Below are positions 1 through 60,929 of a stretch of DNA of 64,000 nucleotides, one piece after another (the stretch's first letter is position 1; each line of letters starts with the position of its first letter). The stretch covers positions 1 through 64,000 of the IMG/VR virus record IMGVR_UViG_3300029319_009270; one strand, given 5' to 3'. The notes under the pieces were generated by a model. It saw only the letters and a list, made by a program, of their open reading frames with translations, was not told the origin of the DNA and did no database searches. The position numbers were made by a program, and so were the translations under genes. The stretch comes from a virus.

Positions 1-427
1 GCTCTTCAACAACTTCTTTAACGTAATCTTCGTATGGTTGAATTTGGATGACATCATAAACAGTAATTTCATCTTTGTTGTGATACATCCAATTCATGCA
101 TGCGTCTTTGATTACTGTATCCAACTCTTTAAAATCATTCAAGATGTCTATGTCTAATTCATAGGCTACAACTTGCTTTGGAAAATCATCAGCACCAAAT
201 CGGTCAGTCGGTTCGAAACCACCAAGTTCTGCAAATTCTCCAGCTGAGGCCCGTGCTTCTTCATCGTCTGTCATTGCCAGCATCTTTATGTTCTTTTTTT
301 GTTTTTCATTGTAATATAAGTCTTCAAGCGGGTCACTTAATGGCTCCTCTACAGGGATAACAAACTCACCATCCCTTCTAACTGAAGCTTCTATCAATCT
401 TCTTAATTGTCTTTTTGTTATTTTCAT
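1..427 (-). CDS. Leader-tagged putative internal virion protein, partial (runs off the window start); paralogue of 429..1538
   Basis: Not in the ORF track. Manual translation from ATG 427 gives MKITKRQLRRLIEASVRRDGEFVIPVEEPLSDPLED..., open to position 1. It aligns with the N-terminal ~110 aa of 429..1538 (P[VI]EEPL.DP, DD.E, RF.AD...KQ...Y). Confidence 0.85.
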   Translation of the reverse strand, partial: MKITKRQLRRLIEASVRRDGEFVIPVEEPLSDPLEDLYYNEKQKKNIKMLAMTDDEEARASAGEFAELGGFEPTDRFGADDFPKQVVAYELDIDILNDFKELDTVIKDACMNWMYHNKDEITVYDVIQIQPYEDYVKEVVEE

Positions 428-428
428 A

Positions 429-1538
429 CTAGTATCCTAATTTCGCCATATTAACTAAGCCTAAAAGATAATTTACATCACCTGGGTCTGCTTCGTCATA
501 TTCATTATTTTTTAACGCTAATTGTAAATCTTCAAGAATCGGTAATACGCCTCGCGAATCTTTAAAACCTCTTTTTGCACCAGATAACTCATTCAGCAAT
601 AACAGCAACGTGGTATCTGGTTTAGGCAACCAGATTGCATCTTTATACATAACTAATTCTTCTAATGCTCTGCTAATCTCATCAGAATTTGCAACTTCAG
701 CTATTAGCTTTCTCAATTGTCTTTTTGTTATTTTCATTTTGCCTTCTTTTATCATCGACATGTCTTGCTTAGGATTATGCTTCTGAATAGTTGTAGTGAA
801 TATATCGTACATCGGTTGCATCGCTTTGTCGTAAATGTGTTGAGCAATTGCAGGACCAAAATTAATGCGCTCTTCATAGCTTCTTCTCTTGAATAGATTA
901 TAAGCTTTCTTAAGTGTTGCAACACGTTGTTTGTCACTCGATTGAGCAGCTTTAAATTTTTCGTAAATCAGTCCGCGGACTTCGTCCATGATAGAGTTAA
1001 CTATGTCAATGTGAAGAGCAGGTGTGTCTACTGCGATATCAATGTTAAAATTAGCGTCCTTGGGCATTTTGTCGTACCAGTTTGGATCTCCATTTAAATA
1101 TAACTGAAAACCTCCTGGTCCTTCTGGATACTTATAACCAGCTTTTAAAATATCAGCAAGGTCAATTGCAAAAGCTTCTCGACGTCTAGGGTTGAAATAG
1201 CGATCAACTGCTGCATCAATTATCTGATCAATTTCCGGATCATTAATTAAATCCAAACCTGCGTCGTACATTCTCATCTGCTTGCTTAGAGTATCCGCGC
1301 TGAAACGTCCTGAACTGGGGAAACCTAAAGTGTCGGCTATGTTGTCTGCTTGTGCCGACGTCTCCAGATCATCTGATCCCGCTAAACCAAAGAGTTTTTC
1401 TTTGTTTACATCTGATAGGTCAAAATCAAAGTCTCGTGGATCTTCAAGCGGTTCTTCTATAGGAGCAACATAGCCAGGACTTCGTTTTATAACTGAAGAT
1501 TCTAATAATTTTCTTAATTGTCTTCTTGTTAATTTCAT
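429..1538 (-). CDS. Leader-tagged acidic protein with a second internal leader (fusion or polyprotein)
   Basis: N-terminus MKLTRRQLRKLLES; internal MIKEGKMKITKRQLRKLIAE (ATG at 737). Confidence 0.85.
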   Translation of the reverse strand: MKLTRRQLRKLLESSVIKRSPGYVAPIEEPLEDPRDFDFDLSDVNKEKLFGLAGSDDLETSAQADNIADTLGFPSSGRFSADTLSKQMRMYDAGLDLINDPEIDQIIDAAVDRYFNPRRREAFAIDLADILKAGYKYPEGPGGFQLYLNGDPNWYDKMPKDANFNIDIAVDTPALHIDIVNSIMDEVRGLIYEKFKAAQSSDKQRVATLKKAYNLFKRRSYEERINFGPAIAQHIYDKAMQPMYDIFTTTIQKHNPKQDMSMIKEGKMKITKRQLRKLIAEVANSDEISRALEELVMYKDAIWLPKPDTTLLLLLNELSGAKRGFKDSRGVLPILEDLQLALKNNEYDEADPGDVNYLLGLVNMAKLGY

Positions 1539-2053
1539 ATTTCATCGCCGGGATGACGTGCTTGCAAGCCAGGATAATTATTCCAAACATGGTCGTACAT
1601 ATCTACACCATATATTTCGTATGGCTCTACATTTAAAATGTATTGTAATAGTGGCTCTCTTATTTCATTCGGATTTAATGGGTCATAAGGCGGATACGCA
1701 CTGTAGTACAAAATTGTCATTTGCTTAGAGAGTTCCTCATCAGTTATCGGACCCATCGTATCGCCCGGGTCGTCTCGATCAATGTCTAAGCCTAAGTCTC
1801 TGGCTTGCATTATCAAGCTCATAAAATAAGGAATAGCTCGATCCAGTGCCTCTATCATTGACGCCTTAGTAGTGCCACCATAAAACTTTTGAAGAAGATT
1901 ACCATTTTCATTCTTATAAATTTTAATATAGCCTACATCACCGCCACTTGAGTCTCCATGATCGACTGGCGGAAAAGTACCCCCGAGCGATCTGTCACCG
2001 CCCATATAGAATTCACGAATTAGCTTTCTCAACTGGGCACTTGTTAATTTCAT
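1535..2053 (-). CDS. Leader-tagged hypothetical protein
   Basis: MKLTSAQLRKLIRE; ATGA overlap with the next gene. Confidence 0.8.
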   Translation of the reverse strand: MKLTSAQLRKLIREFYMGGDRSLGGTFPPVDHGDSSGGDVGYIKIYKNENGNLLQKFYGGTTKASMIEALDRAIPYFMSLIMQARDLGLDIDRDDPGDTMGPITDEELSKQMTILYYSAYPPYDPLNPNEIREPLLQYILNVEPYEIYGVDMYDHVWNNYPGLQARHPGDEI

Positions 2054-2054
2054 A

Positions 2055-2810
2055 TCAAACTACCATGTCCGGATCAAGCGTGTAGCCGTTGCGTTCTAAT
2101 CCTATTACGATTATCTTTTTGTTCGGATCCTCGACGCCTTCTGGTGATCTGGCACCTTGATCTTTAAAATATGCTGCGACGGCAGCTGTTTTATTAGGTA
2201 GGTGAATCATCCCATTCTCCAAAGCCTCAGTATAAAACACTGTTGCTGATTTCGACAGATATATTATCGCGTGCAACAGTGCTCTTTCGATCAAATAATA
2301 TTGATTTTTCCTTCCATGTACCTCTTGCATTAATGCATCTAAGTCTTTGACAATTTCAGAAATACTGTTTTCGTTTAACCCAGCTATAGAATTTCCTGCC
2401 ATGACAGAGTCTTCGCCGCGCCAATTTTTTCCGTATCTAGGTGTTGCAATTTGAAGGCCATCGCCCCTGCCTACTGTTATAAATATGTCTTGATCTATTA
2501 CATTCTCCAGTGCTTCATTATGGCCATTTTCACTTAACACATCCGCTACCTTGTCCTTATTCAAATTAACGGGTGTTTTCTGAAATATTTTCAATGCGTT
2601 ATCATAAGCATCAAGATACGTATCAGTAGTGCCTTCTGGGTCTAGCATAGAATCGAGGAGCATATAGTAAGTCGACATGTCGTCAGGATCTTTAAACATT
2701 TCGAGTGTTTCTAGTTGATCAGGTGACAGCCTACTTAAATCTAGACGTGCTCTTGGATCTTCCATTGATTCTCTAATTAATTTTGTCAATTGCCGTCTTG
2801 TTATTTTCAC
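2055..2810 (-). CDS. Leader-tagged hypothetical protein (GTG start at 2810 preferred)
   Basis: AAGGAG SD before GTG; (M)KITRRQLTKLIRES; shares a helical segment with 3680..4345. Confidence 0.8.
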   Translation of the reverse strand: MKITRRQLTKLIRESMEDPRARLDLSRLSPDQLETLEMFKDPDDMSTYYMLLDSMLDPEGTTDTYLDAYDNALKIFQKTPVNLNKDKVADVLSENGHNEALENVIDQDIFITVGRGDGLQIATPRYGKNWRGEDSVMAGNSIAGLNENSISEIVKDLDALMQEVHGRKNQYYLIERALLHAIIYLSKSATVFYTEALENGMIHLPNKTAAVAAYFKDQGARSPEGVEDPNKKIIVIGLERNGYTLDPDMVV

Positions 2811-2829
2811 AAGAAACTCCTTGCTCATT

Positions 2830-3612
2830 TTACGCGAGATCGTTCATGATTTCTACATACATGTGTTGAATATACTTACCTAACCCTTCCCTCGCATTAT
2901 CTTCAATGCCTTGAAGATTGGCTAAATTTGTCAAGGACCACTCCATATCTTCAATCAATCCATCCATAAATCTATTGTTGGTGATCAGTGATTCCTTGTT
3001 GTCACGGTAGGCAGCAAGGTTCTGTAATGTTGCTTTGAACTTTAAAAGATCTTCACCAGCTGAACTTAAGAATTCATCGCCATCTTCATCATACTCCACA
3101 TATCTATAGGGATCTGGAACGTGCACAAATTCTGTTCCTCTTCCTCTTAGTATTGCATCAAGCAGACTCTGTGGTGTATGTGATTTACCCATCGCTTCTG
3201 CCACTAGTGAACGCAGATTGCTTCTAGTAATAATGCTTTCATTAGTAAGATTTTCATCTCCGCTAACAGGCATCTCGCTAAAACCCCAGCTTTCTTCTAA
3301 CTCTTGCTTAAGTGACTGCAATCTTTCAATTTCTTCAAGAGTTTTTAAATAAGTCTCGAAAGCTTCTGCTTCTACAAGTCGACCTTCCTCTTCCTCTTCA
3401 TTTCTGATATCGTGTTCATATCGACCATATGTCATTGGTTCAAAGTCTTCAATCCCTATTCCACTGGACGGATCTCCAAAATCTGAACCTGCTAATGATC
3501 GAACTTCGCCAGGAGACTTGTATTCCTTGTCGTATCTGTCACGCATCGGATCTCGCTTGTGAGCCATTTCTTTTAGAACTAGATGTGTTAATTGTTTTTT
3601 TGTTATTTTCAT
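2830..3612 (-). CDS. Leader-tagged acidic protein with an internal second leader
   Basis: MKITKKQLTHLVLKE; internal LTNESIITRSNLRSLVAEAM. Confidence 0.8.
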   Translation of the reverse strand: MKITKKQLTHLVLKEMAHKRDPMRDRYDKEYKSPGEVRSLAGSDFGDPSSGIGIEDFEPMTYGRYEHDIRNEEEEEGRLVEAEAFETYLKTLEEIERLQSLKQELEESWGFSEMPVSGDENLTNESIITRSNLRSLVAEAMGKSHTPQSLLDAILRGRGTEFVHVPDPYRYVEYDEDGDEFLSSAGEDLLKFKATLQNLAAYRDNKESLITNNRFMDGLIEDMEWSLTNLANLQGIEDNAREGLGKYIQHMYVEIMNDLA

Positions 3613-3640
3613 TGTTTCACCTTAAAGTATCTGTAATATA

Positions 3641-3647
3641 TAATTAT
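3641..3647 (-). promoter_or_regulatory. ATAnTTA motif (putative late promoter) upstream of the 3612 gene
   Basis: GATAATTATAT on the minus strand; the same motif recurs before most leader-tagged or structural operons. Confidence 0.55.
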
Positions 3648-3679
3648 CTAAATAGTAAATATATTCTAATAAATTACCT

Positions 3680-4345
3680 TTAACTAGTTTTTAATTCTAC
3701 GTAGTAATTTGGGTTGTAATCACTGTATTCCCTTACATATTCTAATATTTTACGTTCTATCTCAATTGTGCTCTTATTAGAATATTCAGCCAGTTTATTC
3801 ATTATGTCTTCAAGTTCTTCTTGGTCCGGCCCCATAGTGCTAAAAGGTCCTCTTCGGCCGGTTACAGTGATAGGACGACGTGCTCTTAGCGAGTAAATAG
3901 ACAACAACTGCGGATTGTCAAGGGCGTCAATCTGGTTTGCCTGTATCTTATCATAAAGAGCATTATGATCTTCTCTAGATATGTTATCATCTATCTTCAA
4001 AAACAATACAATTCCTTGCTCTGCTAAGAGAGTTGTGATTAAGACATCATACATAAAAACGTCTTCTTTCTTAAGCATGCTCATACCAGGTATAGAATTC
4101 TCAAAACCAGCGGGTGACATGAAATATTCATAAGAATCAAAACTGTCATCATCTAACGTTAACGTGTCTAGTAACGAGAAAAACTGGGGAATATCACCTG
4201 ACGCTCTAATTCCATACAACATCTCTTGCTGTTCGTTACTAAGGGAAGCTATTCGCGCATCGATATCTTTAGACAAACTATCACCTACTTGGTCTTCAAT
4301 GGCTTCTCTAATCAATCTTCTTAATTGCTGGCTCTCTATTTTCAT
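3680..4345 (-). CDS. Leader-tagged hypothetical protein
   Basis: MKIESQQLRRLIREA; LSNEQQEML...FFSLLDTL resembles LSPDQLETL...YYMLLDSM of 2055..2810. Confidence 0.8.
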   Translation of the reverse strand: MKIESQQLRRLIREAIEDQVGDSLSKDIDARIASLSNEQQEMLYGIRASGDIPQFFSLLDTLTLDDDSFDSYEYFMSPAGFENSIPGMSMLKKEDVFMYDVLITTLLAEQGIVLFLKIDDNISREDHNALYDKIQANQIDALDNPQLLSIYSLRARRPITVTGRRGPFSTMGPDQEELEDIMNKLAEYSNKSTIEIERKILEYVREYSDYNPNYYVELKTS

Positions 4346-4347
4346 AT

Positions 4348-4968
4348 TTAATTGTTTCCAAATAAATTTTCAATTTCATCAGAAAGATCTCCAAAGTCCG
4401 GACCTAGCATATTTTTAATCTGCACTAATTTTAACAGATACAGACCAATAAGCCACTCCTCTAAGACATAACCCATACCTCCGGAATGTTCCCCTGCCAA
4501 AGCAGAAGAATATGACATTCCTAATCCGCCCTCAGCTGTCTGGTATATTTCCTCACCTTGCATACCTTCATTGCTTATTAGATTGACAATCTCTCCGCTA
4601 CTCATTCCTAAAGAAAGGGACGGATAATTTGGTAACTGATCTAATAATGCAGGGAAAAATGACATACACGGCTTCTCTTTTGTCCCACCGTACATAGAAT
4701 TGTCAGCGATTGCATATATCAAATTCTGTATGTCACCACCTTCTCCCCGGTGTCTTGCTACAAAAGGACCAAGCACAGCATCAACTGCTGAATGGCTTGA
4801 GGCAAAGATATTGAAAATATCTAAATCTGCGGCAAAAGCAAGCTCTTGTGCTTGTATCAAACCTTCAATTCCGGATGCCATCAACCCGGCGATTTTTTGC
4901 TCAGCGGTTCTAGGTTCATCAATAGCCTCAGCAATTATCTGCCTTAATTGTTTTTTTGTTATTTTCAT
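4348..4968 (-). CDS. Leader-tagged hypothetical protein
   Basis: MKITKKQLRQIIAEA. Confidence 0.8.
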   Translation of the reverse strand: MKITKKQLRQIIAEAIDEPRTAEQKIAGLMASGIEGLIQAQELAFAADLDIFNIFASSHSAVDAVLGPFVARHRGEGGDIQNLIYAIADNSMYGGTKEKPCMSFFPALLDQLPNYPSLSLGMSSGEIVNLISNEGMQGEEIYQTAEGGLGMSYSSALAGEHSGGMGYVLEEWLIGLYLLKLVQIKNMLGPDFGDLSDEIENLFGNN

Positions 4969-5417
4969 TTTTGCCTCATCATCGCGATTACATTTTGCAC
5001 CTGGTTTTGCATCGCAGTAGCATTTTCTAAACTATCAAGTGGTAGCGGTGTAACGTTTTGGTTTAGTAAATTTAAGAAGCGTATACCTTCTGCCTCTTTT
5101 GCAATAATCAAAGACGGAGGATTAACTAAAATCGCTTCGCCATCAGGCAAGATCATGTAAAAATCGATAAACTTTTTTAATCCACTATACCCTCTGGGTG
5201 TCTTATAGGGCACACCTTTGGTCATAAAAAAGTTACCCACCCTATGTTTGTCTTTTTTAATTGTTGCACTTGTTTCTTGTCCTGTAGCGAGAGCTTGCAT
5301 TGATGGTGGTAAAGATGCCACATCCTCTTCGTACTGTTCATCAGAAACAGTCTTAACCCTAAACTCGTGTGCAGCTTCTGCGATTAATTGTCTTAATTGT
5401 CTTCTTGTTATTTTCAT
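4965..5417 (-). CDS. Leader-tagged hypothetical protein (first gene of the array)
   Basis: MKITRRQLRQLIAEA from ATG 5417; AGAGG SD; ATAATTA motif at 5434-5440. Confidence 0.8.
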   Translation of the reverse strand: MKITRRQLRQLIAEAAHEFRVKTVSDEQYEEDVASLPPSMQALATGQETSATIKKDKHRVGNFFMTKGVPYKTPRGYSGLKKFIDFYMILPDGEAILVNPPSLIIAKEAEGIRFLNLLNQNVTPLPLDSLENATAMQNQVQNVIAMMRQK

Positions 5418-5433
5418 TGTCAACCCTCTTATG

Positions 5434-5440
5434 TAATTAT
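5434..5440 (-). promoter_or_regulatory. ATAnTTA motif heading the leader-gene array
   Basis: GATAATTACATAAGAGG-N7-ATG on the minus strand. Confidence 0.55.
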
Positions 5441-6408
5441 CGCTTTAAACCTAAAACTTCTAAACCATTTTGAGTTGCTATGTTAAATAAAACATTTTCA
5501 TCATATATTTTACAAGATTCTAAGAGCATTCTTAATTCAAACATCATGTTACCGTCTGAATAAGGTTTGTATACATCATTTATATTGTCACTTCCAATTG
5601 CGACAATTAAATCGTGTTGAATTAATTCGTCAACAGGCGTAACTGCATTATGAAAAGGCATAAGTGTTTCACTTCTTTGATGATCAATCCAAGCAGAGGG
5701 GCATGTTATGAAGCTTAAACCCGCATCTTTTGAGATCCTGTAAACTTCTTCTCTGTAACTTTTTTGATGACAGGCTAGCGAAATTGAATGGACAGCTGTT
5801 ACTTTCCCTTCAAGCCCATGTTGAATTGTTTTTCTTGCTAGCAGTTCTGTTTCCTTTTCTGTTGGTATGTTTAACTGATCAACATGAACATGAACTCTCT
5901 TATCATACTCTTTTGCCCAATTCATTATCTTATCTAAATGTTCTGATTCCTGACCTTTGTCAGCTCCTGGTAAAGATCCTATAATATCAATGTAAGGTAA
6001 AAAATTTCTTATTAAAACTTCTTGAGTTTGTCCTAATACGCCTTTTAAAGTTTGACTTGCAATTACTAACCTAATATCATCTACCTCTTTAGCCAATTCT
6101 CTTGCAGATATTATGGCTTTCGATGAAACAATGTCGTCTATGTCAATGAATGAGCAGACATGGCTAACGCCTTTACCAGATTGATCATGGAGAGCTTTTC
6201 TGATTCTTTCCTTATATTCCCTATAAGAAGTAATTCTTTTAATCTGATCAACTAACTGCCACTTTTCTTTTAAGTGTTTGTATTGATCATTCAAACAAAA
6301 AAAATGAGCTGTATTAGCTCTATCTAAGTGTGCATGTGCATTAACGAATCCGCCTGATCCAACTATTCTCTTTCTTAAGTCTTCAACTGACACAGTATAA
6401 ATCTCCAT
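5437..6408 (-). CDS. Metal-dependent amidohydrolase, cytosine deaminase (CodA)-like
   Basis: NAHAHLD, HVHVDQ, AVHSISL and GSDNIND metal-binding motifs of bacterial cytosine-deaminase-type amidohydrolases. Confidence 0.75.
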   Translation of the reverse strand: MEIYTVSVEDLRKRIVGSGGFVNAHAHLDRANTAHFFCLNDQYKHLKEKWQLVDQIKRITSYREYKERIRKALHDQSGKGVSHVCSFIDIDDIVSSKAIISARELAKEVDDIRLVIASQTLKGVLGQTQEVLIRNFLPYIDIIGSLPGADKGQESEHLDKIMNWAKEYDKRVHVHVDQLNIPTEKETELLARKTIQHGLEGKVTAVHSISLACHQKSYREEVYRISKDAGLSFITCPSAWIDHQRSETLMPFHNAVTPVDELIQHDLIVAIGSDNINDVYKPYSDGNMMFELRMLLESCKIYDENVLFNIATQNGLEVLGLKR

Positions 6409-6465
6409 TAAAATTGTTTAATTTGATATAATTATAAACAAGCAAATCAAAATTATGGAGAAGTT

Positions 6466-8430
6466 ATGCCAAGAATAAGAAATATGGGGACAGCAACCAT
6501 GAAATTCGGCGAAGGAATCGTCGTGTCAGGAAGTGCTGCGAACAAGAACAATACATCTTCTGATTTCACACTAATCGTCTCGGGCAGTTCTCTCTTAGAG
6601 GACGACTTAAGACTTAGAGACACGTTTGGCAGATTATATTTTGGCCAGACAAACAACGACATCTACCTGCGGACCACCGACGGTGACACGCTTGGCATTA
6701 ATGCACCCGCGACAGCATGGTCAATTGGTGATAGCAGTGGAAACACAAAGGATTCCGATCAGATTAGAATAAACAAAGGCGGGCAAGAAATATTTAAAAT
6801 TGGAAAAGACGGATTTGAGTGGAATAGGGTTGGGCTTATAGTTGGTACGACAGGAAGCTTTAATGTTAACGGTCTCTCAAAATTTAAAAAGGGTCTTGTT
6901 GCAACAGGAAGTGCCGGTGAAATGTCTTCTGCAGATTCAGAGTATGCAGCATTTCATTCAAGCGGTTCAATAATGCTTTCATCAGAATCTGACACTACGG
7001 GCATGGATATTGAAATTCAAACAAAAAGACCTAGACTTGTTCTAAAAAGTCATGCAGGCAGTTCGTACAATTCAGCAGTTGTTTTTGACAAGTTCAATGA
7101 TTCTGGTGACGGTAGTATATCAGCTGTTGCTTCTGGCATGACGTTAAGTCAAATTGATGCTAACGGTTTTGACGGTTCAGCGTTAAGAAATGCTACAAGT
7201 ATAAAATCAGTAGTCGATGGGACACCAGGTAGTGGTGACATGCCCGGACGTCTAGAATTTAGAACTTCACCTGACGGATCTGCATCTGTTGTTACGAGAA
7301 TGACAATTAAGAATGATGGAAAAGTTGGGATTGGAACTACTGATCCGGACTATGAACTGGATGTTGCGGGTGATATTGGGCTAGCTGAATACATTTATCA
7401 TAGAAATGATGATAACACTTATATAAGATTTCAAGATGATGATATCAATCTGCAAGTTGGTGGCAGATCTATGATCAAAATGAGTGAAGGTTCAATAGAT
7501 CAGGTTTTAATAATGTCTGGCGGATCCGCAGCTAGTCCCGATGTTAAGACTTCTACAGACACTAACTTTTTTGTATCAGGATCTATCGATTCAATAGATT
7601 CATCTACTCAAGGCACATCTGTTTTTGGTGGTGATGTTGTCATTAGTGGGAGCACAAAAATAAAAGATGTGCTACGAATCAGTGAATACATTACACATGA
7701 AACTGACACGAACACTTACATTAGATTTAACGGTGGTGACACTATTCAAATGTATGCTGGTGGGATAGACTTTATACAATTAAGAGAGCACAGTGAGGAT
7801 CTCTTGATGTTAAACCCTAGTTCTAGAGAGATGGATCTACACTTTTTTCATGATGACACAAGTAACAACGCGCGTGTATTCTTGCTAAGTGAAGGAGCTA
7901 GCTCAACCCCTACAAACGCGACAGATCTTAGTTTTTTCGTTTCGGGATCAATTGGTTCAAGGGGTGGGTCTGCAAAGGGAACAGCAGTATTTGATGGTGA
8001 TGTTGTAATTTCAGGAAGTCTTTACACAAAACAACGTCATGTTAACAGCGCAAAATTTAGCAGCACAGATAATTCACAACGATACGTCCGATGGGATGCA
8101 GCAGGTAGTAATGGTTCTCCAGGTGTAAATAATAAGTTTATAGCTCCGGCTGATGGGCGTCTTTTATTTGTTACAGTACGTTGTACTTCAGCTGCTAACG
8201 GCACTAATGTCGCATTTCATAAAGCATCAGATGGAACTGCTAATTTAAACACAACTGCAATAGAAACAGTAGGCGTTGATATTGATTCAAGTAACACTTC
8301 TTTTCAAGTACAATTCACGTCAACATCTAATTTTAGTGCCGGTGATATTTTAGGAATATCTATAAATCCAACCAGCACACCTAATGATGTCAACATAACT
8401 TGCGTTTGGGAACTAGACTTTGTTAGTTAA
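6466..8430 (+). CDS. Ser/Gly/Thr-rich virion fibre or adhesin-like protein with an internal duplication
   Basis: Repeated (V/I)SGS; GKVGIGTTDP beta-repeat motif; two copies of EYI.H..D.NTYIRF...FFVSGSI.S......GT.VF.GDVVISGS. Confidence 0.6.
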   Translation: MPRIRNMGTATMKFGEGIVVSGSAANKNNTSSDFTLIVSGSSLLEDDLRLRDTFGRLYFGQTNNDIYLRTTDGDTLGINAPATAWSIGDSSGNTKDSDQIRINKGGQEIFKIGKDGFEWNRVGLIVGTTGSFNVNGLSKFKKGLVATGSAGEMSSADSEYAAFHSSGSIMLSSESDTTGMDIEIQTKRPRLVLKSHAGSSYNSAVVFDKFNDSGDGSISAVASGMTLSQIDANGFDGSALRNATSIKSVVDGTPGSGDMPGRLEFRTSPDGSASVVTRMTIKNDGKVGIGTTDPDYELDVAGDIGLAEYIYHRNDDNTYIRFQDDDINLQVGGRSMIKMSEGSIDQVLIMSGGSAASPDVKTSTDTNFFVSGSIDSIDSSTQGTSVFGGDVVISGSTKIKDVLRISEYITHETDTNTYIRFNGGDTIQMYAGGIDFIQLREHSEDLLMLNPSSREMDLHFFHDDTSNNARVFLLSEGASSTPTNATDLSFFVSGSIGSRGGSAKGTAVFDGDVVISGSLYTKQRHVNSAKFSSTDNSQRYVRWDAAGSNGSPGVNNKFIAPADGRLLFVTVRCTSAANGTNVAFHKASDGTANLNTTAIETVGVDIDSSNTSFQVQFTSTSNFSAGDILGISINPTSTPNDVNITCVWELDFVS

Positions 8431-8936
8431 GGTAGCCAAAATTCCCTTCCCATCTTATGATAGAGGGGATGCATGATATGACCCGGTTCATCAATGTGGG
8501 TAAACCCTAGGGCATGCCCTAATTCATGCTCGTTGATTAAATCTAAATTAAACGAACCTGATTGATAATAAATGATTGCGCCTTTCATCTCGAAATATCT
8601 AGAATATCTTTTGGTGCTAGCAATTGTATTAGCAGGTAGAGAACGAGTTCGCCTCAATATTATGAAACCTTCAAGCCAGCTGTTATCACAAACAGAATTT
8701 GGCGGATTATGCTCATAAAAACCTATTGGGTAACCGTTGTCTTCCCAATAATTTATAGCTCTTTTAATTTGATATTCATTAAAGTCAGGGCCATAACAAT
8801 TAATAATCGCCGGTGGGTGCTTCCACGTATAGGGCTCAAACATTGAAGCTTCATATCGATACTTCATTGCCAGTCCTAAAAGAAAACCTATTATTAAACT
8901 AGCTAAAAGTATAAGAAGTACTCGCGAGACTTTCAC
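8427..8936 (-). CDS. Membrane-anchored matrixin-like (M10) zinc metalloprotease
   Basis: N-terminal TM; HELGHALGFTH zinc motif followed by the Met-turn HIMHP. Confidence 0.75.
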   Translation of the reverse strand: MKVSRVLLILLASLIIGFLLGLAMKYRYEASMFEPYTWKHPPAIINCYGPDFNEYQIKRAINYWEDNGYPIGFYEHNPPNSVCDNSWLEGFIILRRTRSLPANTIASTKRYSRYFEMKGAIIYYQSGSFNLDLINEHELGHALGFTHIDEPGHIMHPLYHKMGREFWLP

Positions 8937-10495
8937 GTCCCGCATCCCCACGATGCATATTCGATATCAATGGTTTGTCCTTCTGATGGTTCATATCCGT
9001 GTTCAAAAATAACAGCATTTTGATCTTCATCATACTCCCAATCTGTTGTTTGTTGTCCGTTAACATAAACCTCGATTGTATTTTCAATGGGATCGTCCTC
9101 AGTGAGTTTAAACACTCTTCTTGCTGTTACCTCCCCGGCTAAGTCTTGCAACTGTACACCCCAATCAGATGCACAAATCGAGTACCAGTTTCCGCCATAG
9201 TGATCTATTAGATCCCAATATCCTTCCCCAGCCTGGGCTGTTCTAAAGTATCCGTTATGTTGATATTGACATCCGGCTGGATAATCACCTATGACACCAT
9301 ACGGAATGAAATCACCAGCTGGTTTAACTGCATCAAAAAAAGTAAGATAAGATGACCACCCGGGAGATGAATGATCAGGTTCATCTGAAACAAAAATTAC
9401 TATAAGTTTTGCTGATTCTCTAAAGAAGCTACCCCCAGGGCCAGCAGCATTCGGGTCACTAAGACTGTTATATGCCATCTGAATTCCTTTTTCAATTCCG
9501 GAACCGTAAGTTCCTAACAAAACTAAACTTGATAAAGCAGCTTCAGGATCTGGGTGTGTTGTATCAATTATTGTTGAAAATGTAGATCGGTCTGTAGTGA
9601 TTACAGACATTCTATAATCTGCTCCTGTCGTGGAAAAAGCATTCATAAAAGAACCAATATTTGTCGATAGATTTGTCTGAAACGGCATCATCGATCCAGA
9701 GTTATCAATGACCCACAAAACATCTAAAACAGGTATTTCATCTTGCTGCCATTGATCTGTATGCCATTGTTCAACGTCACCGTCGCCATACTGCACAACT
9801 GTCTGTTCAGGATTTAAAGGGTCATCTCCTTTTATTGTTATTGAACTTTCATCTCTCCCAATATCTGATGGAATATATGAAACTAAAAAGTCTATTTCTT
9901 GTCCTGGAATTAAGACCCAAGGAGGCTCAGGAAGACTCCCGTATTCCATTGCAATATCAGCAGGTTGTGAAACCATCTGAATTACTGATTCTACAGTTAA
10001 ATCCAAATTTCCTTCGTTTCTTATTGTTACTCTTTCTTCATTGTCACAGCCAATTGATATATCTCCATAATCAAAAATGTCTGGGTCGACGGTCATAACT
10101 GGCGCATCCCCATATCCTTCAAGCGTAATAACTGACACCGGTTCATCTTCGTCATCTGATATTATTTCTATATAAGCACCATTTGACTCATATGTCGCAG
10201 GGGTATACCCAACTTCAAATTCTAATAACTCGCCTGGTTCAACGACATACAATTCTTCACTAGCGTTTAAAGTAAACCTAGAATTACCAGAAACTAATTC
10301 GGGAGAAAAGATTTTAAGTTCTTTGTCTCCCGTATTAATAATTTGAAAAGTATCTTGTCCTGATTCATGGCCTGATTTTAAGTGGCCAAAATTAATATGT
10401 TCAGGATGAACCAATATTTCTTGTTGTCGTTTTTCTATGCCCGCAACTAAGTAATCATTGCAAGCTAGTAAACTTAATAAAAATAAAACCATCAA
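8933..10495 (-). CDS. Lipoprotein with two Ig-like (choice-of-anchor D/ASH-type) domains and a vWA domain
   Basis: Lipobox LLAC; two [INF/FDY]G...I.N.G...L.[IV] Ig repeats; MIDAS DNSGS; VSDE. Confidence 0.75.
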   Translation of the reverse strand: MMVLFLLSLLACNDYLVAGIEKRQQEILVHPEHINFGHLKSGHESGQDTFQIINTGDKELKIFSPELVSGNSRFTLNASEELYVVEPGELLEFEVGYTPATYESNGAYIEIISDDEDEPVSVITLEGYGDAPVMTVDPDIFDYGDISIGCDNEERVTIRNEGNLDLTVESVIQMVSQPADIAMEYGSLPEPPWVLIPGQEIDFLVSYIPSDIGRDESSITIKGDDPLNPEQTVVQYGDGDVEQWHTDQWQQDEIPVLDVLWVIDNSGSMMPFQTNLSTNIGSFMNAFSTTGADYRMSVITTDRSTFSTIIDTTHPDPEAALSSLVLLGTYGSGIEKGIQMAYNSLSDPNAAGPGGSFFRESAKLIVIFVSDEPDHSSPGWSSYLTFFDAVKPAGDFIPYGVIGDYPAGCQYQHNGYFRTAQAGEGYWDLIDHYGGNWYSICASDWGVQLQDLAGEVTARRVFKLTEDDPIENTIEVYVNGQQTTDWEYDEDQNAVIFEHGYEPSEGQTIDIEYASWGCGT

Positions 10496-10542
10496 ACACC
10501 CCCTTATAATAAATAAAAGGGATTCGGGGTTTTATCTAAATT

Positions 10543-10839
10543 TTATTGATTCGACAATCTTTTTGCAGCTTTAATGTATCCCAGTGCTTGATCAAGTGAT
10601 GCTGACTGTTGTTTTATTTCTTTAACATTTCTCGCAATTCCAGCAGAACGTTCTTCGATGTTAGCTAATCTTGAAAGCGGAGCATCTATTCCTCGTGCTT
10701 CTAATTCATTAACTGACACGTCTATCATCTCCTTTAGCGTCATTAGTTGCGATTTGAGATTGACCATGGTCGACTCAACACGCCCCCTTGTGTGGCTAAG
10801 TTCTTCTGCGATTTGCATTATTTTATCTAAGTGATCCAT
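10543..10839 (-). CDS. Coiled-coil hypothetical protein
   Basis: Heptad-rich 98 aa ORF. Confidence 0.6.
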   Translation of the reverse strand: MDHLDKIMQIAEELSHTRGRVESTMVNLKSQLMTLKEMIDVSVNELEARGIDAPLSRLANIEERSAGIARNVKEIKQQSASLDQALGYIKAAKRLSNQ

Positions 10840-10899
10840 ACTTGCGCCTATATTTGTAATTGTTTTGTTGTATTATATACAATACGTTCAGAGGTGTTT

Positions 10900-11604
10900 A
10901 TGGAAAAGAAAATCTATTTATATGCAGACAATATTGGATCTGTTGAATATGTAAGTCACATGGGTAAAGATATTACCATCGTCAATAGTGCAAGAGTTTC
11001 GTTTGGAAAGCATAAGGAGAGTATGGATGAAAAAGACAGAAAACTTATTAAATACCTCATCAAACATAGACACACGTCCACGCTGGAACACAATCTTGTT
11101 ACATATCGTTTTGTGGTACCTTTGTTTGTGCGTAGTCAGCACCACCGTCATAGAACTTGGTCTTATAATGAAATTAGTCGTAGATATACTGATGAAAATT
11201 TACGATTTTATGAGCCAGTAAGTTTTAGAACACAACACAAATCAAATCGACAAGCAAGTAATTTAGATAAAATTAATCCTGTCATATACCCAGACTGGGA
11301 TGATCCAGAAAGCGGTTACAAAGCAGATCAAATTATACAAATGCATCACAAAACATCTGTCACGTTATACAATGATTTGATGAAACAAGGCGTTTGTAGG
11401 GAACAAGCGCGTGGAGTTTTACCTCAAAATCTATACACAGAATATTATGGGACCGTCAATCTTAACAACTTGCTTAAATTTATTGACTTAAGAACCCATG
11501 AGGGTGCACAGTGGGAAATACAAAAAGTTGCAGAAGCTTGCTTAGAAATAGCTACTGACTTATGGCCTGAAACTGTTAATGCATATAAATTAATTAGACA
11601 ATAA
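10900..11604 (+). CDS. thyX: Flavin-dependent thymidylate synthase
   Basis: H.STLEH, RHRTWSYNEISRRY signature, REQARGVLP, AQWEI; start ATG 10900 after GAGGT. Confidence 0.95.
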   Translation: MEKKIYLYADNIGSVEYVSHMGKDITIVNSARVSFGKHKESMDEKDRKLIKYLIKHRHTSTLEHNLVTYRFVVPLFVRSQHHRHRTWSYNEISRRYTDENLRFYEPVSFRTQHKSNRQASNLDKINPVIYPDWDDPESGYKADQIIQMHHKTSVTLYNDLMKQGVCREQARGVLPQNLYTEYYGTVNLNNLLKFIDLRTHEGAQWEIQKVAEACLEIATDLWPETVNAYKLIRQ

Positions 11605-12856
11605 TTAATCTTTCTATTAAAGCCTTCAATTGTCTTAACGTAATACTTACGATTCCTTCGTTAACTGATTCTGCCCTGGGTTTTGCTCTCCGAGCTCTAC
11701 CAATGATCTGATTTGCCATAGCAAAAGCACCGGTTATTTTATATATCTTACCGCCCTTTTCAAAAACAACGCCTTCAAGAGACGATGCTACATTTTCTAT
11801 ATTGCCAAGTTTTGCTAACTGCCTATCAACGAGCTTGCCCATTTTTTCATCACCTGATTCTGCTAATGATTCTAGATATGAAATACTTTCTTCTAACTCT
11901 TCTCGTATGCTCTGAACAGCAGCATCATGATCGACAACAAAAAAGCTCTTAATACCTCTAAGCACTTCTATCGCAAAATCGTTAATAATGTTTTCAAGAG
12001 GTCTCAGAACTACACCAATTACTTTTTTAGCGTTTACCTTTGTGCAGTATTTTGATATCTTTTTAGACATTTCTTTTGTCTTTCCGTATTCTTTTTTAAT
12101 ATCCCTCAATTCAAGTCCGCCGGGTTCCTTAAAAACATTCCTTATTATTTCATCGCATGCATTAGCTGGGATATCTTCTGACAGCATTAAATTTTTATAA
12201 TATATTTTGCATAGACTCTTAATTGTGCCGTCCATACCCACTGGTTCTGCCAGTTTTTGTATTTTACTAACCACTGCTTGGTGTGCTTTTCCATCCGCGA
12301 TATTATTGAGAGGAATAACTTGGGGCCCATATACGCTCCAAGCTTCTCCGTCAATTTCAACTTGAGCACTGTCCAAAGCAGATCGCAGACGCTCGAAAGA
12401 CTCAGAGGTTTCACCTCCGTCAATTGATATTAAGTTATGAAGCACAACGTACGATGCACCATAAATTATAATATTAGGGTTGCCTGGATACATTATCTCC
12501 ATGTTAACGTAGCTTTTTCCGCCATCAAATATATCAATGACATCTTCCTGATTAAGGGAATTAATTGCTGCACCAATGGCTCTAAATCCTTTCATAAAAG
12601 CATCCTCAGCAGGATGTCCTTTCCACTTCGCCGCATAATCACTAGTCGTCATGCCGCCTTTTTTAATATCTGTTGGATTACGTGCAGTTCTTATTTCTCC
12701 TAAAGAATTAACAGTTAAAAATAGGTTTTGCCCGTCTACCTTTTCAACAACTTCAATGTCTGCTGACGCAACTTGATTTAATATTGACACTAACTCATTA
12801 AAAGTTAAATCTAAATCTTCATGAAGATGTGCCATGTGTCCGGCCGCTCCTCCCAT
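11594..12856 (-). CDS. Covalent nucleotidyltransferase (ligase-like) protein with a C-terminal leader-like peptide
   Basis: EKVDG (motif I), EGVVF (motif IV), YKITG (motif V); C-terminus VNEGIVSITLRQLKALIE. Confidence 0.55.
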   Translation of the reverse strand: MGGAAGHMAHLHEDLDLTFNELVSILNQVASADIEVVEKVDGQNLFLTVNSLGEIRTARNPTDIKKGGMTTSDYAAKWKGHPAEDAFMKGFRAIGAAINSLNQEDVIDIFDGGKSYVNMEIMYPGNPNIIIYGASYVVLHNLISIDGGETSESFERLRSALDSAQVEIDGEAWSVYGPQVIPLNNIADGKAHQAVVSKIQKLAEPVGMDGTIKSLCKIYYKNLMLSEDIPANACDEIIRNVFKEPGGLELRDIKKEYGKTKEMSKKISKYCTKVNAKKVIGVVLRPLENIINDFAIEVLRGIKSFFVVDHDAAVQSIREELEESISYLESLAESGDEKMGKLVDRQLAKLGNIENVASSLEGVVFEKGGKIYKITGAFAMANQIIGRARRAKPRAESVNEGIVSITLRQLKALIERLIIV

Positions 12857-12857
12857 T

Positions 12858-13193
12858 TTATTCTCCTTTTACTTTAACCAAATAGCATATATTAATTATA
12901 TGCTTACCGTGATTATTACCAATTGTTGCTAGCCAAGCTTTGCAATCACTACCACCATCAGAACCCATGAAATATTCATCGATGCTATATACAAGATAAA
13001 TCTCTTCATCTTCATCATGATCTAAGTCAACAATATTGTGATATTTGACTATATCCCCAACAGATGCTAGTTCCTTATTATAGTAAAACTTTGGTGGGCT
13101 ACTTTGGTTTAAATGAAAGGACATTTTTGTTTTCTTCAGGATATTCCTCGGATTCGCTTTCTTCTTCTCCTTGTGGTTCCTGGGGTTCTTCAA
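12858..13193 (-). CDS. Small KOW/SH3-like hypothetical protein (true start probably further downstream)
   Basis: SVGDIVKY pattern; the N-terminal part overlaps the upstream gene. Confidence 0.45.
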   Translation of the reverse strand: MKNPRNHKEKKKANPRNILKKTKMSFHLNQSSPPKFYYNKELASVGDIVKYHNIVDLDHDEDEEIYLVYSIDEYFMGSDGGSDCKAWLATIGNNHGKHIINICYLVKVKGE

Positions 13194-13572
13194 CAGTTTC
13201 GCCGTACCTTTCTTTCACTTCGTCTAACCCTACCCCCATCAAAAAACTTTCAATTCGATATAATGCCTCTTTCTCGCTTTCTTCAACAGTCAACTTGTTG
13301 TTGACCATAAACATCTCATCAAAATAAGTCCAAGAATCATTTTTCCAAAACTCAATATAAGGGTTGATAATCAATTCATCATTGTTATCTTGATCGTATA
13401 TTATTCCAATTTTTGCCCTCATTGAGATAGGGTGTGTCATACCCTCAAGCATCCAAGAAAATATCCAAATTGAAGTTTGCGCACTAATTTCAGCATCAAA
13501 CTGTTCTGAATATTGTTTATCGCTTTGCCTATATAGCAACTTTCTATTAAATATCGCTTGCTCCTTTTCCAT
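13099..13572 (-). CDS. Hypothetical protein
   Basis: ATG 13572 after GAAGGT; acidic C-terminus ending NVLSFKPK. Confidence 0.65.
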   Translation of the reverse strand: MEKEQAIFNRKLLYRQSDKQYSEQFDAEISAQTSIWIFSWMLEGMTHPISMRAKIGIIYDQDNNDELIINPYIEFWKNDSWTYFDEMFMVNNKLTVEESEKEALYRIESFLMGVGLDEVKERYGETVEEPQEPQGEEESESEEYPEENKNVLSFKPK

Positions 13573-13600
13573 GTCATTACCTTCTTTTTTTATTCTTTTT

Positions 13601-13804
13601 TTATTCGTAAAGTGGAATATTATTGATAATACAGATAAGTAAGTCGCCCTCTTTACCCCATTTCCATGTGTCATTATTTGCTCTGTAAAATATTTTATTG
13701 CCTTGCAACTCTATAACTTTATCACCACGAGTGTTCCAACAATTATAACCATCTGTATGTAAATTGAAACATTCTGCGTACTTTTTAATATAACTTTTTT
13801 GCAT
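13601..13804 (-). CDS. Hypothetical protein
   Basis: Fits operon packing. Confidence 0.5.
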   Translation of the reverse strand: MQKSYIKKYAECFNLHTDGYNCWNTRGDKVIELQGNKIFYRANNDTWKWGKEGDLLICIINNIPLYE

Positions 13805-14084
13805 TCTTTACTCGTTCCATAATTCTCTTATAGTATTCATCTGCATCATCATCTTCAAATGCTTTACTTATCTTAACGGGATTCTTGACAATCTCCTCCT
13901 TTTCCTCTTCTTCTGGATACTGATATTCAATTTCAGACTTACCAAGACCCATTAGAGGCTTTCTAGGCTTAATAACATGTCCTGCACCATGACCTTTGTG
14001 ACCACGAACACTCACAACATTTTTTGTTGTTGCCATGTCCATTTCTCTAATTAATTGTCTAAGCAGTTCTATTGTTTTTTTCAT
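13785..14084 (-). CDS. Leader-like hypothetical protein
   Basis: MKKTIELLRQLIREM; ATACTTA motif at 14100-14106; GAGGT SD. Confidence 0.7.
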   Translation of the reverse strand: MKKTIELLRQLIREMDMATTKNVVSVRGHKGHGAGHVIKPRKPLMGLGKSEIEYQYPEEEEKEEIVKNPVKISKAFEDDDADEYYKRIMERVKNAKKLY

Positions 14085-14180
14085 AACATACCTCTTTATT
14101 AAGTATGTGCTTTATGATTTGATATCCCACAACAATTCATAAAAAAAGCAACGTAAATTAAAATCACCATGAATATCATA

Positions 14181-14963: not shown

Positions 14964-14985
14964 ATAGCTCCCTTTATATAATTTT

Positions 14986-15204: not shown

Positions 15205-15207
15205 ATA

Positions 15208-16062: not shown

Positions 16063-16123
16063 ACCCTATATCTTCCTCCTACAATAATATGTATCATAAA
16101 AGTAAAAAAAGTAAAGGTGTATA

Positions 16124-38727: not shown

Positions 38728-39447
38728 TTAATAACCATCATCTTGCGAAATTATTTCATCATAAAGGTCGTATAATCTGTCGGGAATATCAATTTCACTA
38801 TAATATTTTCTAATGATATCTTCAGCAGCTTTTTGATCAACAATAACTAAATCTGCATACATTGTCATAGGTCCGGGAACATTCTCATACATTGCAACTA
38901 CAATTCCGTCTTTATTAACAAAAGCGTCATCAGATTCAATATAGTTTAAATAACCAGAGTCACTATCCGCTATATCTTCTAACACGTAAACTGTGTTATG
39001 TGCCAAAAGAGTATCAAGAATAGCTTCATCAGAAACATTAGCAGAAGGCGGATCTCGGTCTGATTCGTGTGGAGTCATAGCATCATAACTGGCTTGTGCT
39101 CTACTAAAAGCGGCATTTCGCCTACTATGATACATTTCTTTAATTAGTTTTCTTAACTGTGTTCTTGTGATTTTCATAAGATCGCTAGGTGTTCGTCTTA
39201 TGCGTGGACGAGGTCTATTGGCTCTTTGTTTGACATCACGATCTACCCGATCTCGCCAAGCATCATCAGGGCTAACGTATTCATAATCCGGAGGAGCTAA
39301 TTCAGGATCGCCCAGCAAACCTTCGTACCCGCCTGGAGCACTTATTTCCTCCTCGCCAAACTCATAAGGAAGATCATGATTAGTGTATATGTCTTTAGGC
39401 ATCTCTTTCAAGATTATCTTTCTAAGCAACTTCCTATTAAGCTTCAT
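38728..39447 (-). CDS. Doubly leader-tagged acidic protein
   Basis: MKLNRKLLRKIILKEM and internal MKITRTQLRKLIKEM (ATG 39177). Confidence 0.75.
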   Translation of the reverse strand: MKLNRKLLRKIILKEMPKDIYTNHDLPYEFGEEEISAPGGYEGLLGDPELAPPDYEYVSPDDAWRDRVDRDVKQRANRPRPRIRRTPSDLMKITRTQLRKLIKEMYHSRRNAAFSRAQASYDAMTPHESDRDPPSANVSDEAILDTLLAHNTVYVLEDIADSDSGYLNYIESDDAFVNKDGIVVAMYENVPGPMTMYADLVIVDQKAAEDIIRKYYSEIDIPDRLYDLYDEIISQDDGY

Positions 39448-59963: not shown

Positions 59964-60929
59964 TTAATATCTTCCATGATATCTTCGTCGATACAAACTA
60001 CCTCGACTAAGACCTTCATTAATATCTGTATCGGGTCCTACCATACCACTGGGTGTCTCCGGTTGTCCAGAGGGTGGTACATCTCGAGATGTAACAGACT
60101 CAGGGTTTGACTTGAATTCAATATCATCATCTTTTGTACTAGCAACTTTTGCAGAACCTGACGCGGATGGAATCAATTTACTAGCATAAGTTATAGCTCC
60201 AGCGTCTAACAACATCTGAAGAACCCCGTCGTGAAGCATAGAAGCAGCCGTAGTTGTACCGCATTCTGAACTGAAGACGCGCAGATATCCTCTCTGTTGA
60301 CTGACAAAACTACCTTCGCGCTGGGACGCTCGAACTCTTTCGCCTATCGAAACCAATGCATTTTTATCACCATCTAAAGTGGCAATTGCTGATGCTGCTA
60401 AAACCTCTTTATATTCACCTGCAGCTTCAGGATAAACATCACAATAAAGTTCTGAATCCTCGATAAATTCTAAGATTGCATTTATTGGCGGTTCAGGTTC
60501 AGGTTCTTTAACTTGTGGTTTGAAAGTTTTTCCAACGGACTTACTTACGGGTCCTGAAATTATTCTATAACGATCACCCACTTTTGCATAAGTGTACGGG
60601 TCTCCTCTTCCACTGATACCATAATCAGATCCCGCCTTTCCGAATTCAGGTTTAACGCCTATCTCAGGTGCCCAATATAAATCCCAGTCTAACCAAACGA
60701 AATAATCGCCTTTTGGAACAGGGATATTCATTCTTTTAAGAATTTCAGCAGCTTCGGAAGCGGGAACTTTTACTGCTTTTGGATTGTCTGCTGCTTTCGC
60801 TTTGTCTAAGATGTCTCCTTCTCGAGGATCTAAGTTTTTACCCTTAGGATCAGCGTCAGGTATAGCATGTTCTTCTTCATTTAATAGTGATTCTATCAAT
60901 AAATTCAAATTTCTTTTAGTGATTCTCAT
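59964..60929 (-). CDS. Leader-tagged protein with a basic C-terminal peptide
   Basis: MRITKRNLNLLIESLLNEE; C-terminus INEGLSRGSLYRRRYHGRY; ATACTTA at 60962-60968. Confidence 0.7.
   Translation of the reverse strand: MRITKRNLNLLIESLLNEEEHAIPDADPKGKNLDPREGDILDKAKAADNPKAVKVPASEAAEILKRMNIPVPKGDYFVWLDWDLYWAPEIGVKPEFGKAGSDYGISGRGDPYTYAKVGDRYRIISGPVSKSVGKTFKPQVKEPEPEPPINAILEFIEDSELYCDVYPEAAGEYKEVLAASAIATLDGDKNALVSIGERVRASQREGSFVSQQRGYLRVFSSECGTTTAASMLHDGVLQMLLDAGAITYASKLIPSASGSAKVASTKDDDIEFKSNPESVTSRDVPPSGQPETPSGMVGPDTDINEGLSRGSLYRRRYHGRY

Follow-up and report, generated by a model that had tools for sequence, protein, structure and literature searches.

In phage T4, the internal proteins IPI, IPII and IPIII and the protein Alt carry a short capsid-targeting sequence (CTS) that is removed by the prohead protease gp21 (PMC9026906, PMC3012670), an enzyme for which an (L/I)xE cleavage rule has been described together with the role of the CTS (PMC9026906, PMC5694885). 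T4-like phages may rely on the CTS for loading various proteins, and the internal proteins of T-even phages are diverse defence proteins that share only this sequence (PMC3012670, PMC9026906). Here I analyse a stretch of viral DNA of 64,000 nucleotides (the window), namely the first 64 kb of a single 90,544-bp contig filed as IMG/VR virus record IMGVR_UViG_3300029319_009270, which opens with eight consecutive genes whose products share an N-terminal peptide, hereafter the leader, and differ in almost everything else. Comparison with related genomes suggests that the leader is a capsid-targeting tag, removed by a protease, on a hypervariable library of cargo proteins, a reading to which I assign a probability of roughly 0.65.

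Earlier work on T4 reportedly includes a study of the capsid targeting sequence by Mullaney and Black in 1996 and one of the polymorphic internal-protein loci of T-even phages by Repoila et al. in 1994. The present locus is like the T4 system in that a short N-terminal peptide (10-19 residues in T4, 13-15 here) ending in hydrophobic-x-Glu stands on otherwise unrelated proteins, in that the lineage has a head module of the gp20/gp21/gp22/gp23 type, and in that the tagged genes are clustered and differ between related phages. It differs in scale, with at least 8-10 tagged genes in one array and about 30 in a complete relative, as against three internal proteins plus Alt in T4. It also differs in form: the tag recurs as an internal linker in polyproteins, and cassettes are gained, lost and fused at the tag between near-identical genomes. 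Because loading through a shared CTS has already been stated for T-even phages, the leader array is an extension of that system in scale and form and not a new principle.

The other close parallel is found in the phiKZ-like giant phages (SPN3US, phiKZ, 201phi2-1), where many head-internal proteins are cut at x-x-Glu by a gp21-related protease; the diverged paralogues gp53 and gp54 of SPN3US keep identical N-termini, and the propeptides are thought to target the prohead (PMC5694885). However, the phiKZ-type propeptides are mostly longer than 100 residues and end in (S/A/G)-x-E, whereas the leader has 13-15 residues and ends in [LIV]-x-E, and the phiKZ-type processed proteins are largely conserved virion components, unlike the hypervariable tandem cassettes with one short common tag described here. 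In the literature covered, which leaves out most subscription journals, I found neither the leader sequence nor such arrays in marine T4-like phages.

A common leader on eight genes

The eight open reading frames (ORFs), A1 to A8, lie on the minus strand between window positions 2 and 5417, with A8 first and A1 last in the order of transcription. Each starts with MK[IL]T[KRS][KRAQ]QL[RT].[LI][ILV], followed by a Glu one to three residues later, and all eight leaders end in [LIV]xE, much as an initial annotation, made from the sequence of the window, had described with (L/I)xE. The first gene of the array, A8 (4965..5417), encodes the leader MKITRRQLRQLIAE and a near-neutral body of 136 aa; its likely start is the ATG at 5417, which has the Shine-Dalgarno sequence AGAGGG 6 nt upstream, and not the TTG at 5423. 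Then come A7 (4348..4968, MKITKKQLRQIIAE, body with an isoelectric point (pI) of 4.2), A6 (3680..4345, MKIESQQLRRLIRE), A5 (2830..3612, MKITKKQLTHLVLKE), A4 (2055..2810, KITRRQLTKLIRE) and A3 (1535..2053, MKLTSAQLRKLIRE), all with acidic bodies. The leader of A4 starts at the GTG at 2810 (AAGGAG 6 nt upstream), which is residue 7 of the longest ORF, from 2828. A2 (429..1538) is composite and consists of a leader, a conserved N-module (residues ~15-262), the junction IKEGK, an internal leader MKITKRQLRKLIAE and a C-module. Finally, A1 (2..427, MKITKRQLRRLIE) has a body paralogous to the N-module of A2, and its C-terminus is cut off by the start of the contig.

A profile hidden Markov model (HMM) built from 158 distinct leaders on other IMG/VR contigs was used to scan a six-frame translation of the whole contig. 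It found 11 sites scoring 10.7-33.2 bits, against a best score of 8.7 bits in five shuffled genomes; all 11 exceed every shuffle, and the run of genes with a common N-terminal peptide seen in the initial annotation is real. Nine of the sites fall in the first 5.4 kb, among them the leaders of A8 (33.2 bits), A7 (31.6), A3 (14.4) and A6 (11.8), the N-terminal copy of A5 (10.7) and the internal leader of A2, which is a second full in-frame copy (nt 696-737, 29.9 bits). Of the other two, one is internal to the gene at 38728-39447, and one, beyond the window, opens the gene at contig positions 80427-81191. Two more copies that had been proposed, at 19742 (5.5 bits) and 3234 (unlisted), stay under the shuffle maximum; the latter belongs to a weak leader-like stretch inside A5 (3196-3234, minus strand, IITRSNLRSLVAE) that is under the noise level of the HMM.

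The leader carries a net charge of +2 to +4 and is thus basic, as the initial annotation held, but its amphipathicity is only moderate, with a hydrophobic moment of 0.47-0.70 in eight of nine copies compared with about 0.33 for shuffles. Leu, Arg and Ile codons vary between the copies, so that conservation acts on the peptide; at the same time the leader DNA is A-rich and similar across copies. The bodies, once freed of their leaders, are mostly unrelated and acidic: BLASTP finds no similarity among them except between A1 and A2 (34% identity over 106 aa), and seven of the eight have a pI of 4.2-5.0.

Leaders inside polyproteins

The N-module of A2 has 19 homologues (38-71% identity, lengths 236-550 aa), and these are built like beads on a string, with a leader, a module, a junction [VIM]KE[GSR][KR], a leader and another module. 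Modules like those of A1 and A2 occur in either order among them, and also as separate genes, and various other modules follow. Several of the internal leaders have no Met (LKVTRRQL, IRLSKRQL, IKISRRQL) and hence are not alternative starts. Hydrophobic-x-Glu borders the internal tag on both sides, an arrangement that a head protease would require in order to excise the tag and release the modules from one another. An AlphaFold2 model of A2 from 19 sequences has a mean predicted local distance difference test (pLDDT) score of 58 and draws the leaders as isolated helices (residues 5-14 and 272-284) with disorder on either side, at a confidence too low for further use.

The head module of related phages

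The contig is a fragment of the genome of a large uncultured marine T4-like phage. CheckV estimates its completeness at 37%, which implies a genome of about 245 kb, and no capsid, portal, terminase or gp21-type protease gene was recognised on the 90.5 kb. Relatives were located through the DnaE-like protein of the contig (DNA polymerase III alpha-like, 78-85% identity), and among these both G006 (141 kb) and G008 (93 kb) have genes for a Peptidase_S77 (S77) protease and for a Gp23-family capsid protein of about 640 aa. The far end of the contig (SSB, UvsX, an RNase H-like gene, DnaB, ribonucleotide reductase (RNR)) is colinear with 52-60 kb of G006, which places the head module (10-21 kb in G006) just past the contig end. 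A third relative, G003, is complete at 293 kb with terminal repeats and has its S77 protease inside a T4-type head module; it shares with the contig UvsX (72% identity), a ClpP-like protease (67%) and a 1264-aa protein (49%), as well as DnaE-, GroEL- and sigma-70-like genes (40-51%, DnaE being the 40%). Thus the gp21-like protease that the initial annotation called for is present in the lineage (G006, G008, G003), and the contig itself is without it.

In G006 the genes follow in the order terminase, portal, a 286-aa protein, S77 protease (14595-15194), two small proteins, scaffold and capsid protein, then seven leader genes, and then baseplate-, sheath- and tube-like genes. These seven leader genes are thus embedded in the structural module, with the capsid gene on one side and baseplate genes on the other. 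The two small proteins just downstream of S77 are conserved in seven of seven genomes and begin M[AS]KI[ST]K..LK.[LI]VKEC.. and ..KLTP.LLKKLV.EEK.K.., N-termini that in their sequence are recognisably of the same kind as the leader with its common extension. They also invite comparison with T4, where the vertex protein gp24 (MAKINELLRE) and the prohead core protein gp67 (..TIDLIKEEKIAIARNFLIE), both of them gp21 substrates from the head module, resemble in style the leader plus the extension ..IIKEEKARLL.E, although the similarity of the small proteins to gp67, gp68 and gp24 is too short to establish homology, and T4 genes 67 and 68 precede gene 21 whereas the two small genes here come after the protease. 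The second of them (L163; G006 15749-16012, 87 aa) is very basic past its leader-like start (pI 11, net charge +25), unlike gp67, gp68 and gp24; this composition suggests a protein that would suit a DNA-associated internal role. The capsid proteins begin ..F[ST]LNQLTE. The G006 scaffold is strongly acidic (pI 4.6, net charge -51), which makes it a plausible partner of the basic leader, and its 27 [LI]xE sites would make it a typical substrate of a gp21-type enzyme.

The end of the leader also fits such an enzyme. Among the ORFs of the contig, G003 and G006, with leader ORFs picked by a pattern that does not require Glu, [LIVM]xE directly closes the leader core in 44 of the 46 leader ORFs, whereas 84 of 563 other ORFs have it in the same N-terminal window. 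The known gp21 substrates in the T4 record have endings of this kind, MKTYQEFIAE in ipII and ipIII, ..ITE at residue 19 in ipI, and MAKINELLRE in gp24. Furthermore, in another T4-like lineage (L029) a leader-tagged P-loop protein is encoded directly upstream of S77. This protein (L029 4786-5505, L045 794-1513) is about 26% identical to phage polynucleotide kinases and would be a candidate for an enzyme among the packaged cargo.

The protease recognised on the contig is of another kind. A ClpP-like gene (contig 79772-80374) matches phrog_94, head maturation protease (E 3.5e-23), and lies directly downstream of the leader gene at contig 80427-81191 (MKITRKQIRRLLSE, 254 aa), which has an ATAATTA motif of its own; after the ClpP-like gene come an endolysin-like gene and three very large ORFs (1264, 949 and 973 aa). 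The leader might in principle be recognised by this enzyme, as the cleavage site of a second maturation or as an N-terminal degradation tag that times removal, and the neighbourhood just described, together with the 67% identity of the ClpP-like gene in G003, speaks for such a link. But in G003 that gene is about 42 kb from the head module, where S77 sits between the portal and scaffold genes, and on the contig its neighbours are endolysin-like and RNR genes, not portal, scaffold or capsid genes. LR756511, the nearest database match of the ClpP-like gene, has no leader or head genes around it, and the [LIVM]xE ending fits the known gp21 rule, no such rule being known for ClpP-type enzymes. Recognition by ClpP is therefore very improbable, and the lineage has a ClpP-like protease besides its gp21-type one.

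Distribution of the leader

A degenerate DNA scan of IMG/VR for the leader returned at least 119 loci with at least 228 ORF starts, many of them in tandem arrays of five to nine, and the consensus among the matches listed is MKITKRQLRRIIKEE, often extended as KARLL.E. In G003 alone there are about 22 leader genes in an array at 47.6-56.6 kb, six at 284.5-286.3 kb and one at 267.4 kb. All five large leader-bearing records tested first carry both Gp23 and S77, and S77 is present in 17 of 45 further leader-bearing records, including nine of the ten that are at least 70% complete; the exception among these ten is a 48-kb record with one poor leader match. Taken together, 14 of the 15 leader-bearing records with a completeness of 70% or more have S77, as do all five with 90% or more. 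The small leader contigs, with an estimated completeness of 2-30%, are fragments.

These data bear on whether the peptide could instead be a permanent N-terminal helix, serving docking, DNA or membrane binding, or oligomerisation, that stays in place and has no part in the head. As a basic helix of moderate amphipathicity, the leader would suit such a role, its conserved Glu can be a mere part of the helix, and in the wider family the stretch often runs on as EEKARLL.E, like a longer helix. However, the motif recurs on head-module proteins in seven of seven genomes, leader genes stand within the structural module of G006, and near-complete leader-bearing records almost always have the S77 protease. 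Internal copies with hydrophobic-x-Glu on both sides also join modules that elsewhere are separate, which excision explains better than docking. I consider a permanent helix unlikely.

In prokaryotes the leader is nearly absent: a scan of 596 Gb (one genome per species, 185,579 species) found it on only 13 stretches, all on contigs of marine metagenome-assembled genomes (MAGs), and a cellular origin was rejected on this ground. Leader arrays stand on the long contigs NHDW01000006.1 (L177, L184, L187), PBIO01000025.1 (L179, L183) and DJMA01000033.1 (L185), which comprise a 306-kb contig assigned to 'Methylococcaceae TMED69' with 13 copies, a 101-kb Halobacteriovorax contig with six, and a 186-kb Bdellovibrionaceae contig. 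These long contigs are probably mis-binned phage contigs; that two of the bins are Bdellovibrionota may or may not hint at the host.

A blastn search of window positions 1-6500 against the INPHARED phages gave no match, nor did a tblastn search of the same collection with one small leader protein (L078), possibly through the low-complexity filter. The nearest cultured phages by capsid protein are Flavobacterium phage immuto, Microcystis phage Mel-JY01 and RM378, and two metagenomic huge phages are likewise close. The leader was not found in the 25.6-kb region around the head module of immuto (best HMM score 6.6 bits). At 2736-4036 of the immuto locus (NC_055915, L148), two adjacent genes upstream of the terminase share a different N-terminus, MADNFNLRSFLTENKLT and MENFDLKKFLVENKLT, which also contains hydrophobic-x-Glu, and the immuto capsid protein begins MELNQLFEG. 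From its sequence, this shared N-terminus seems to be the counterpart of the tag in the lineage of this cultured phage.

Turnover of the cargo genes

Directly upstream of the array lies a gene with Pfam Amidohydro_1/3 domains (5437..6408, minus strand), a conserved anchor whose homologues in G006, G018 and the metagenome locus L189 also precede leader genes. In G006 the amidohydrolase (64% identity) is followed at the same position by six leader genes, none with a body like those of A1-A8, and the flanking genes of that locus are 44-72% identical to those of the contig. The amidohydrolase and array block is found on the opposite side of a conserved gene block in G006 (window 5437-22780 versus G006 123188-140975, the block being the homologues of 22319-22780 through 11594-12856), a rearrangement that adjoins the array.

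Searches through A2 and A5 gave no related locus in IMG/VR, and a scan of metagenomes gave one. This locus, L189 on contig MDTB01161726.1, holds the sole homologue of A5 among 5.8 billion proteins, and its flanking genes are 95-99% identical to those of the contig. Window positions 6500..2764 correspond to L189 7113..10849 at 97.2% (A8 is 98% identical), and the block stops within a leader, after about 15 of its codons. Two additional cassettes come next in L189, one being the C-module of A2 as a separate 102-aa gene with its own Met-leader and the other a 203-aa gene absent here. The alignment resumes with window 2809..1487, equal to L189 11735..13060 at 94.3%, and again the block ends within a leader; the N-module, internal leader and C-module of A2 (1487..429) have no counterpart at this position of L189. 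The body of A4 is kept in L189 at 92% identity but stands under a different leader, MKISKRQLRYLIIE. In L189 the full A1 has 275 aa and is followed by another leader gene, so the contig end truncates the array.

Since the ends of the aligned blocks lie in leaders, the cassette boundaries coincide with leaders. In this one pair of contigs, the changes match what would be expected of recombination between leader repeats, and to judge by both comparisons the locus acts like a library of cargo that changes rapidly while the amidohydrolase gene upstream of it is conserved. There is a functional analogy, and only that, to integrons: a conserved anchor gene, tandem unrelated cassettes bounded by a repeat, and a content that varies between close relatives. 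Unlike an integron, the locus lacks an integrase and attC-like sites, its repeat is the coding sequence of the leader, and ordinary homologous recombination between leader repeats would fit the changes.

Breakpoints in the leaders, together with A-rich leader DNA that is alike between copies, would also be expected if the element acted as a nucleic acid, either as an enhancer of translation initiation in the A-rich 5' coding region or as a recombination site, with the peptide incidental. Yet synonymous codons vary while the peptide is kept, it is the peptide and not the DNA that is conserved across hundreds of contigs, and polyproteins contain in-frame internal copies that have no start codon. 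Recombination at leaders is moreover compatible with, and expected from, a repeated coding tag. An action as nucleic acid is thus extremely improbable. In particular, an element at the mRNA level was rejected on the synonymous variation and the Met-less internal copies.

Turnover also bears on what becomes of the bodies. The leader could load the prohead as proposed, with the acidic bodies helping to scaffold a very large head or to fill its core and being degraded or expelled during maturation and DNA packaging. Their acidity resembles that of the G006 scaffold and of T4 gp67, gp68 and gp22, conserved core proteins adjoining the protease carry leader-like N-termini, and T4 scaffold and core proteins are cut into fragments that exit the head (PMC5694885). 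But parts of an assembly are expected to be conserved, and the bodies are replaced between relatives with 44-72% identical flanks and even between near-identical contigs, one array protein having only a single homologue in the database searched. Elsewhere the tag is borne by the P-loop protein resembling polynucleotide kinases, which is not a filler. I regard a filler role as distinctly unlikely and retain the reading in which the leader marks a library of cargo.

A candidate late promoter

The array is headed by an ATAATTA motif, which was located on the gene strand at 5434..5440, 23 nt before the ATG of A8, in agreement with the initial annotation; further copies on the same strand precede A5 (3641-3647) and A2 (1575-1581). 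The gene strand of the contig has 33 copies and the opposite strand 18. For 13 of the 33, a start follows 17-67 nt downstream; among these starts are those of A8, A5, A2, two large genes whose leaders are degenerate, and the leader gene at 80427-81191. ATAATTA likewise precedes the scaffold gene, core protein 2, the sheath-like gene and the leader operons in G006, and the tube gene there has the variant ATATTTA. From this placement the motif is a reasonable candidate for a late promoter. Sigma-70 promoter-like and terminator-like sites in 1-6600 showed no enrichment over shuffles.

A model for loading, cleavage and exchange

I propose that the array genes would be transcribed late, from promoters of the ATAATTA type, along with the head genes. 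During prohead formation the basic helix of the leader would bind the strongly acidic scaffolding core, so that any body that follows would be carried inside, and the gp21-type S77 protease would then cut after the Glu of the [LIVM]xE with which the leader ends. In two-module proteins it would also cut after the [VIM]KE just ahead of the internal leader. The mature modules, freed in the head, would remain with the DNA and probably accompany it into the cell. At the level of DNA, the leader also marks the boundary of a cassette: between near-identical genomes, modules are inserted, deleted, moved, fused and split at leaders. Scaffold binding, cleavage, packaging, ejection and a role in counter-defence are all inferred, and the notion that the cargo consists of effectors of counter-defence or takeover comes from the turnover of the genes and, by analogy, from T4 IPI and Alt.

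Several observations weigh against this reading. The leader has no similarity to the T4 CTS, whether that of ipII and ipIII or that of ipI (MKTFKEFTSTTTPVSTITE), and has in common with it only the MK start and the hydrophobic-x-E end; nor is the T4 CTS basic, as the leader is. The internal proteins of T4 are basic (pI 8.9-9.5) and DNA-associated, in contrast to the seven acidic bodies here, and acidic cargo might leave the head with scaffold fragments instead of staying. Because [LIVM]xE is a short motif, it is also compatible with the end of any amphipathic helix. The S77 protease is absent from the 37%-complete contig and its presence is taken from relatives; the protease that PHROG labels as head maturation protease on the contig is the ClpP-like one, adjoining one leader gene; and the association of leader and S77 comes without a matched control for the prevalence of S77 among large marine phages. 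Finally, none of the cargo bodies could be assigned to a known fold or family: the eight array proteins matched nothing in Pfam or PHROG scans, and a search of the ESM Atlas with A4 gave no usable match.

The head-loading interpretation offered in the initial annotation is partly supported, by the S77 protease and T4-type head module of the lineage, the [LIVM]xE ending, the N-termini of head proteins, the position of leader genes in G006 and the ATAATTA motif they share there with scaffold and tail genes, and the turnover. Departures from T4 are the sequence and charge of the leader and the acidity of most bodies. More tentatively, and at somewhat less than even odds, the leader may be dual-purpose. 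As a peptide it would be a protease-flanked loading tag, N-terminal or between modules, that brings the products of single genes and polyproteins alike into the prohead, to be cut there into separate cargo. As DNA its repeats would be the recombination junctions of an integrase-free cassette system. Through this system a widespread group of marine T4-like jumbo phages would exchange, join and divide dozens of proteins that are packaged and probably injected, and would do so very quickly.

Other features of the contig

Degenerate leader-like N-termini are seen on scattered genes at 38728-39447, 56867-58399, 35022-37817, 59964-60929 and 13785-14084; they read MKLNRKLLRKIILKE, MFINKTTVRKIIRDVLRE, MRITKRNLNLLIES and ..LLRQLIRE, and most are under the noise level of the HMM. 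The gene at 38728..39447 (minus strand) has, besides its degenerate N-terminal leader MKLNRKLLRKIILKE, a strong internal copy, MKITRTQLRKLIKE, from nt 39177 (19.4 bits). The N-terminus of the gene at 59964..60929 (minus strand), MRITKRNLNLLIES, matches by regular expression only and is under the noise level. Two large genes of this group have ATAATTA 21-23 nt upstream. From their N-termini, these scattered genes may encode further head-loaded or virion proteins.

I take the genes at 26222-26959, 27896-29485 and 46071-49583 to be sigma-70-like, GroEL-like and DnaE-like, respectively, and others on the contig to resemble those of RNR, DnaB, UvsX and SSB, in each case from the appearance of the sequence and with no family search. 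A family B polymerase of the T4 type was not noticed on the contig, no family search having been made on the polymerase-like genes. Large structural-looking proteins of the contig have no PHROG matches, and ten further proteins, large or leader-bearing, yielded next to no matches in PHROG scans.

Significance

The interest of the array lies mainly in its scale, in the behaviour of its polyproteins and cassettes, and in the prospect that a packaged proteome can be read from sequence. If the tag works as proposed, the proteins carried in the heads of abundant marine jumbo phages, about 30 per genome, could be listed directly from their genomes. The tagged proteins would then probably reach the cell with the DNA, ahead of any phage gene expression, and by analogy with T4 IPI and Alt the packaged set would be a natural hunting ground for counter-defence and takeover functions of the first minute of infection. 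The leader would also be a candidate tool for bringing foreign proteins into phage heads outside the model systems, in the way that the CTS already serves in T4. Finally, the polyproteins and the leader-bounded changes of cassettes would show how the arsenal of these phages diversifies.

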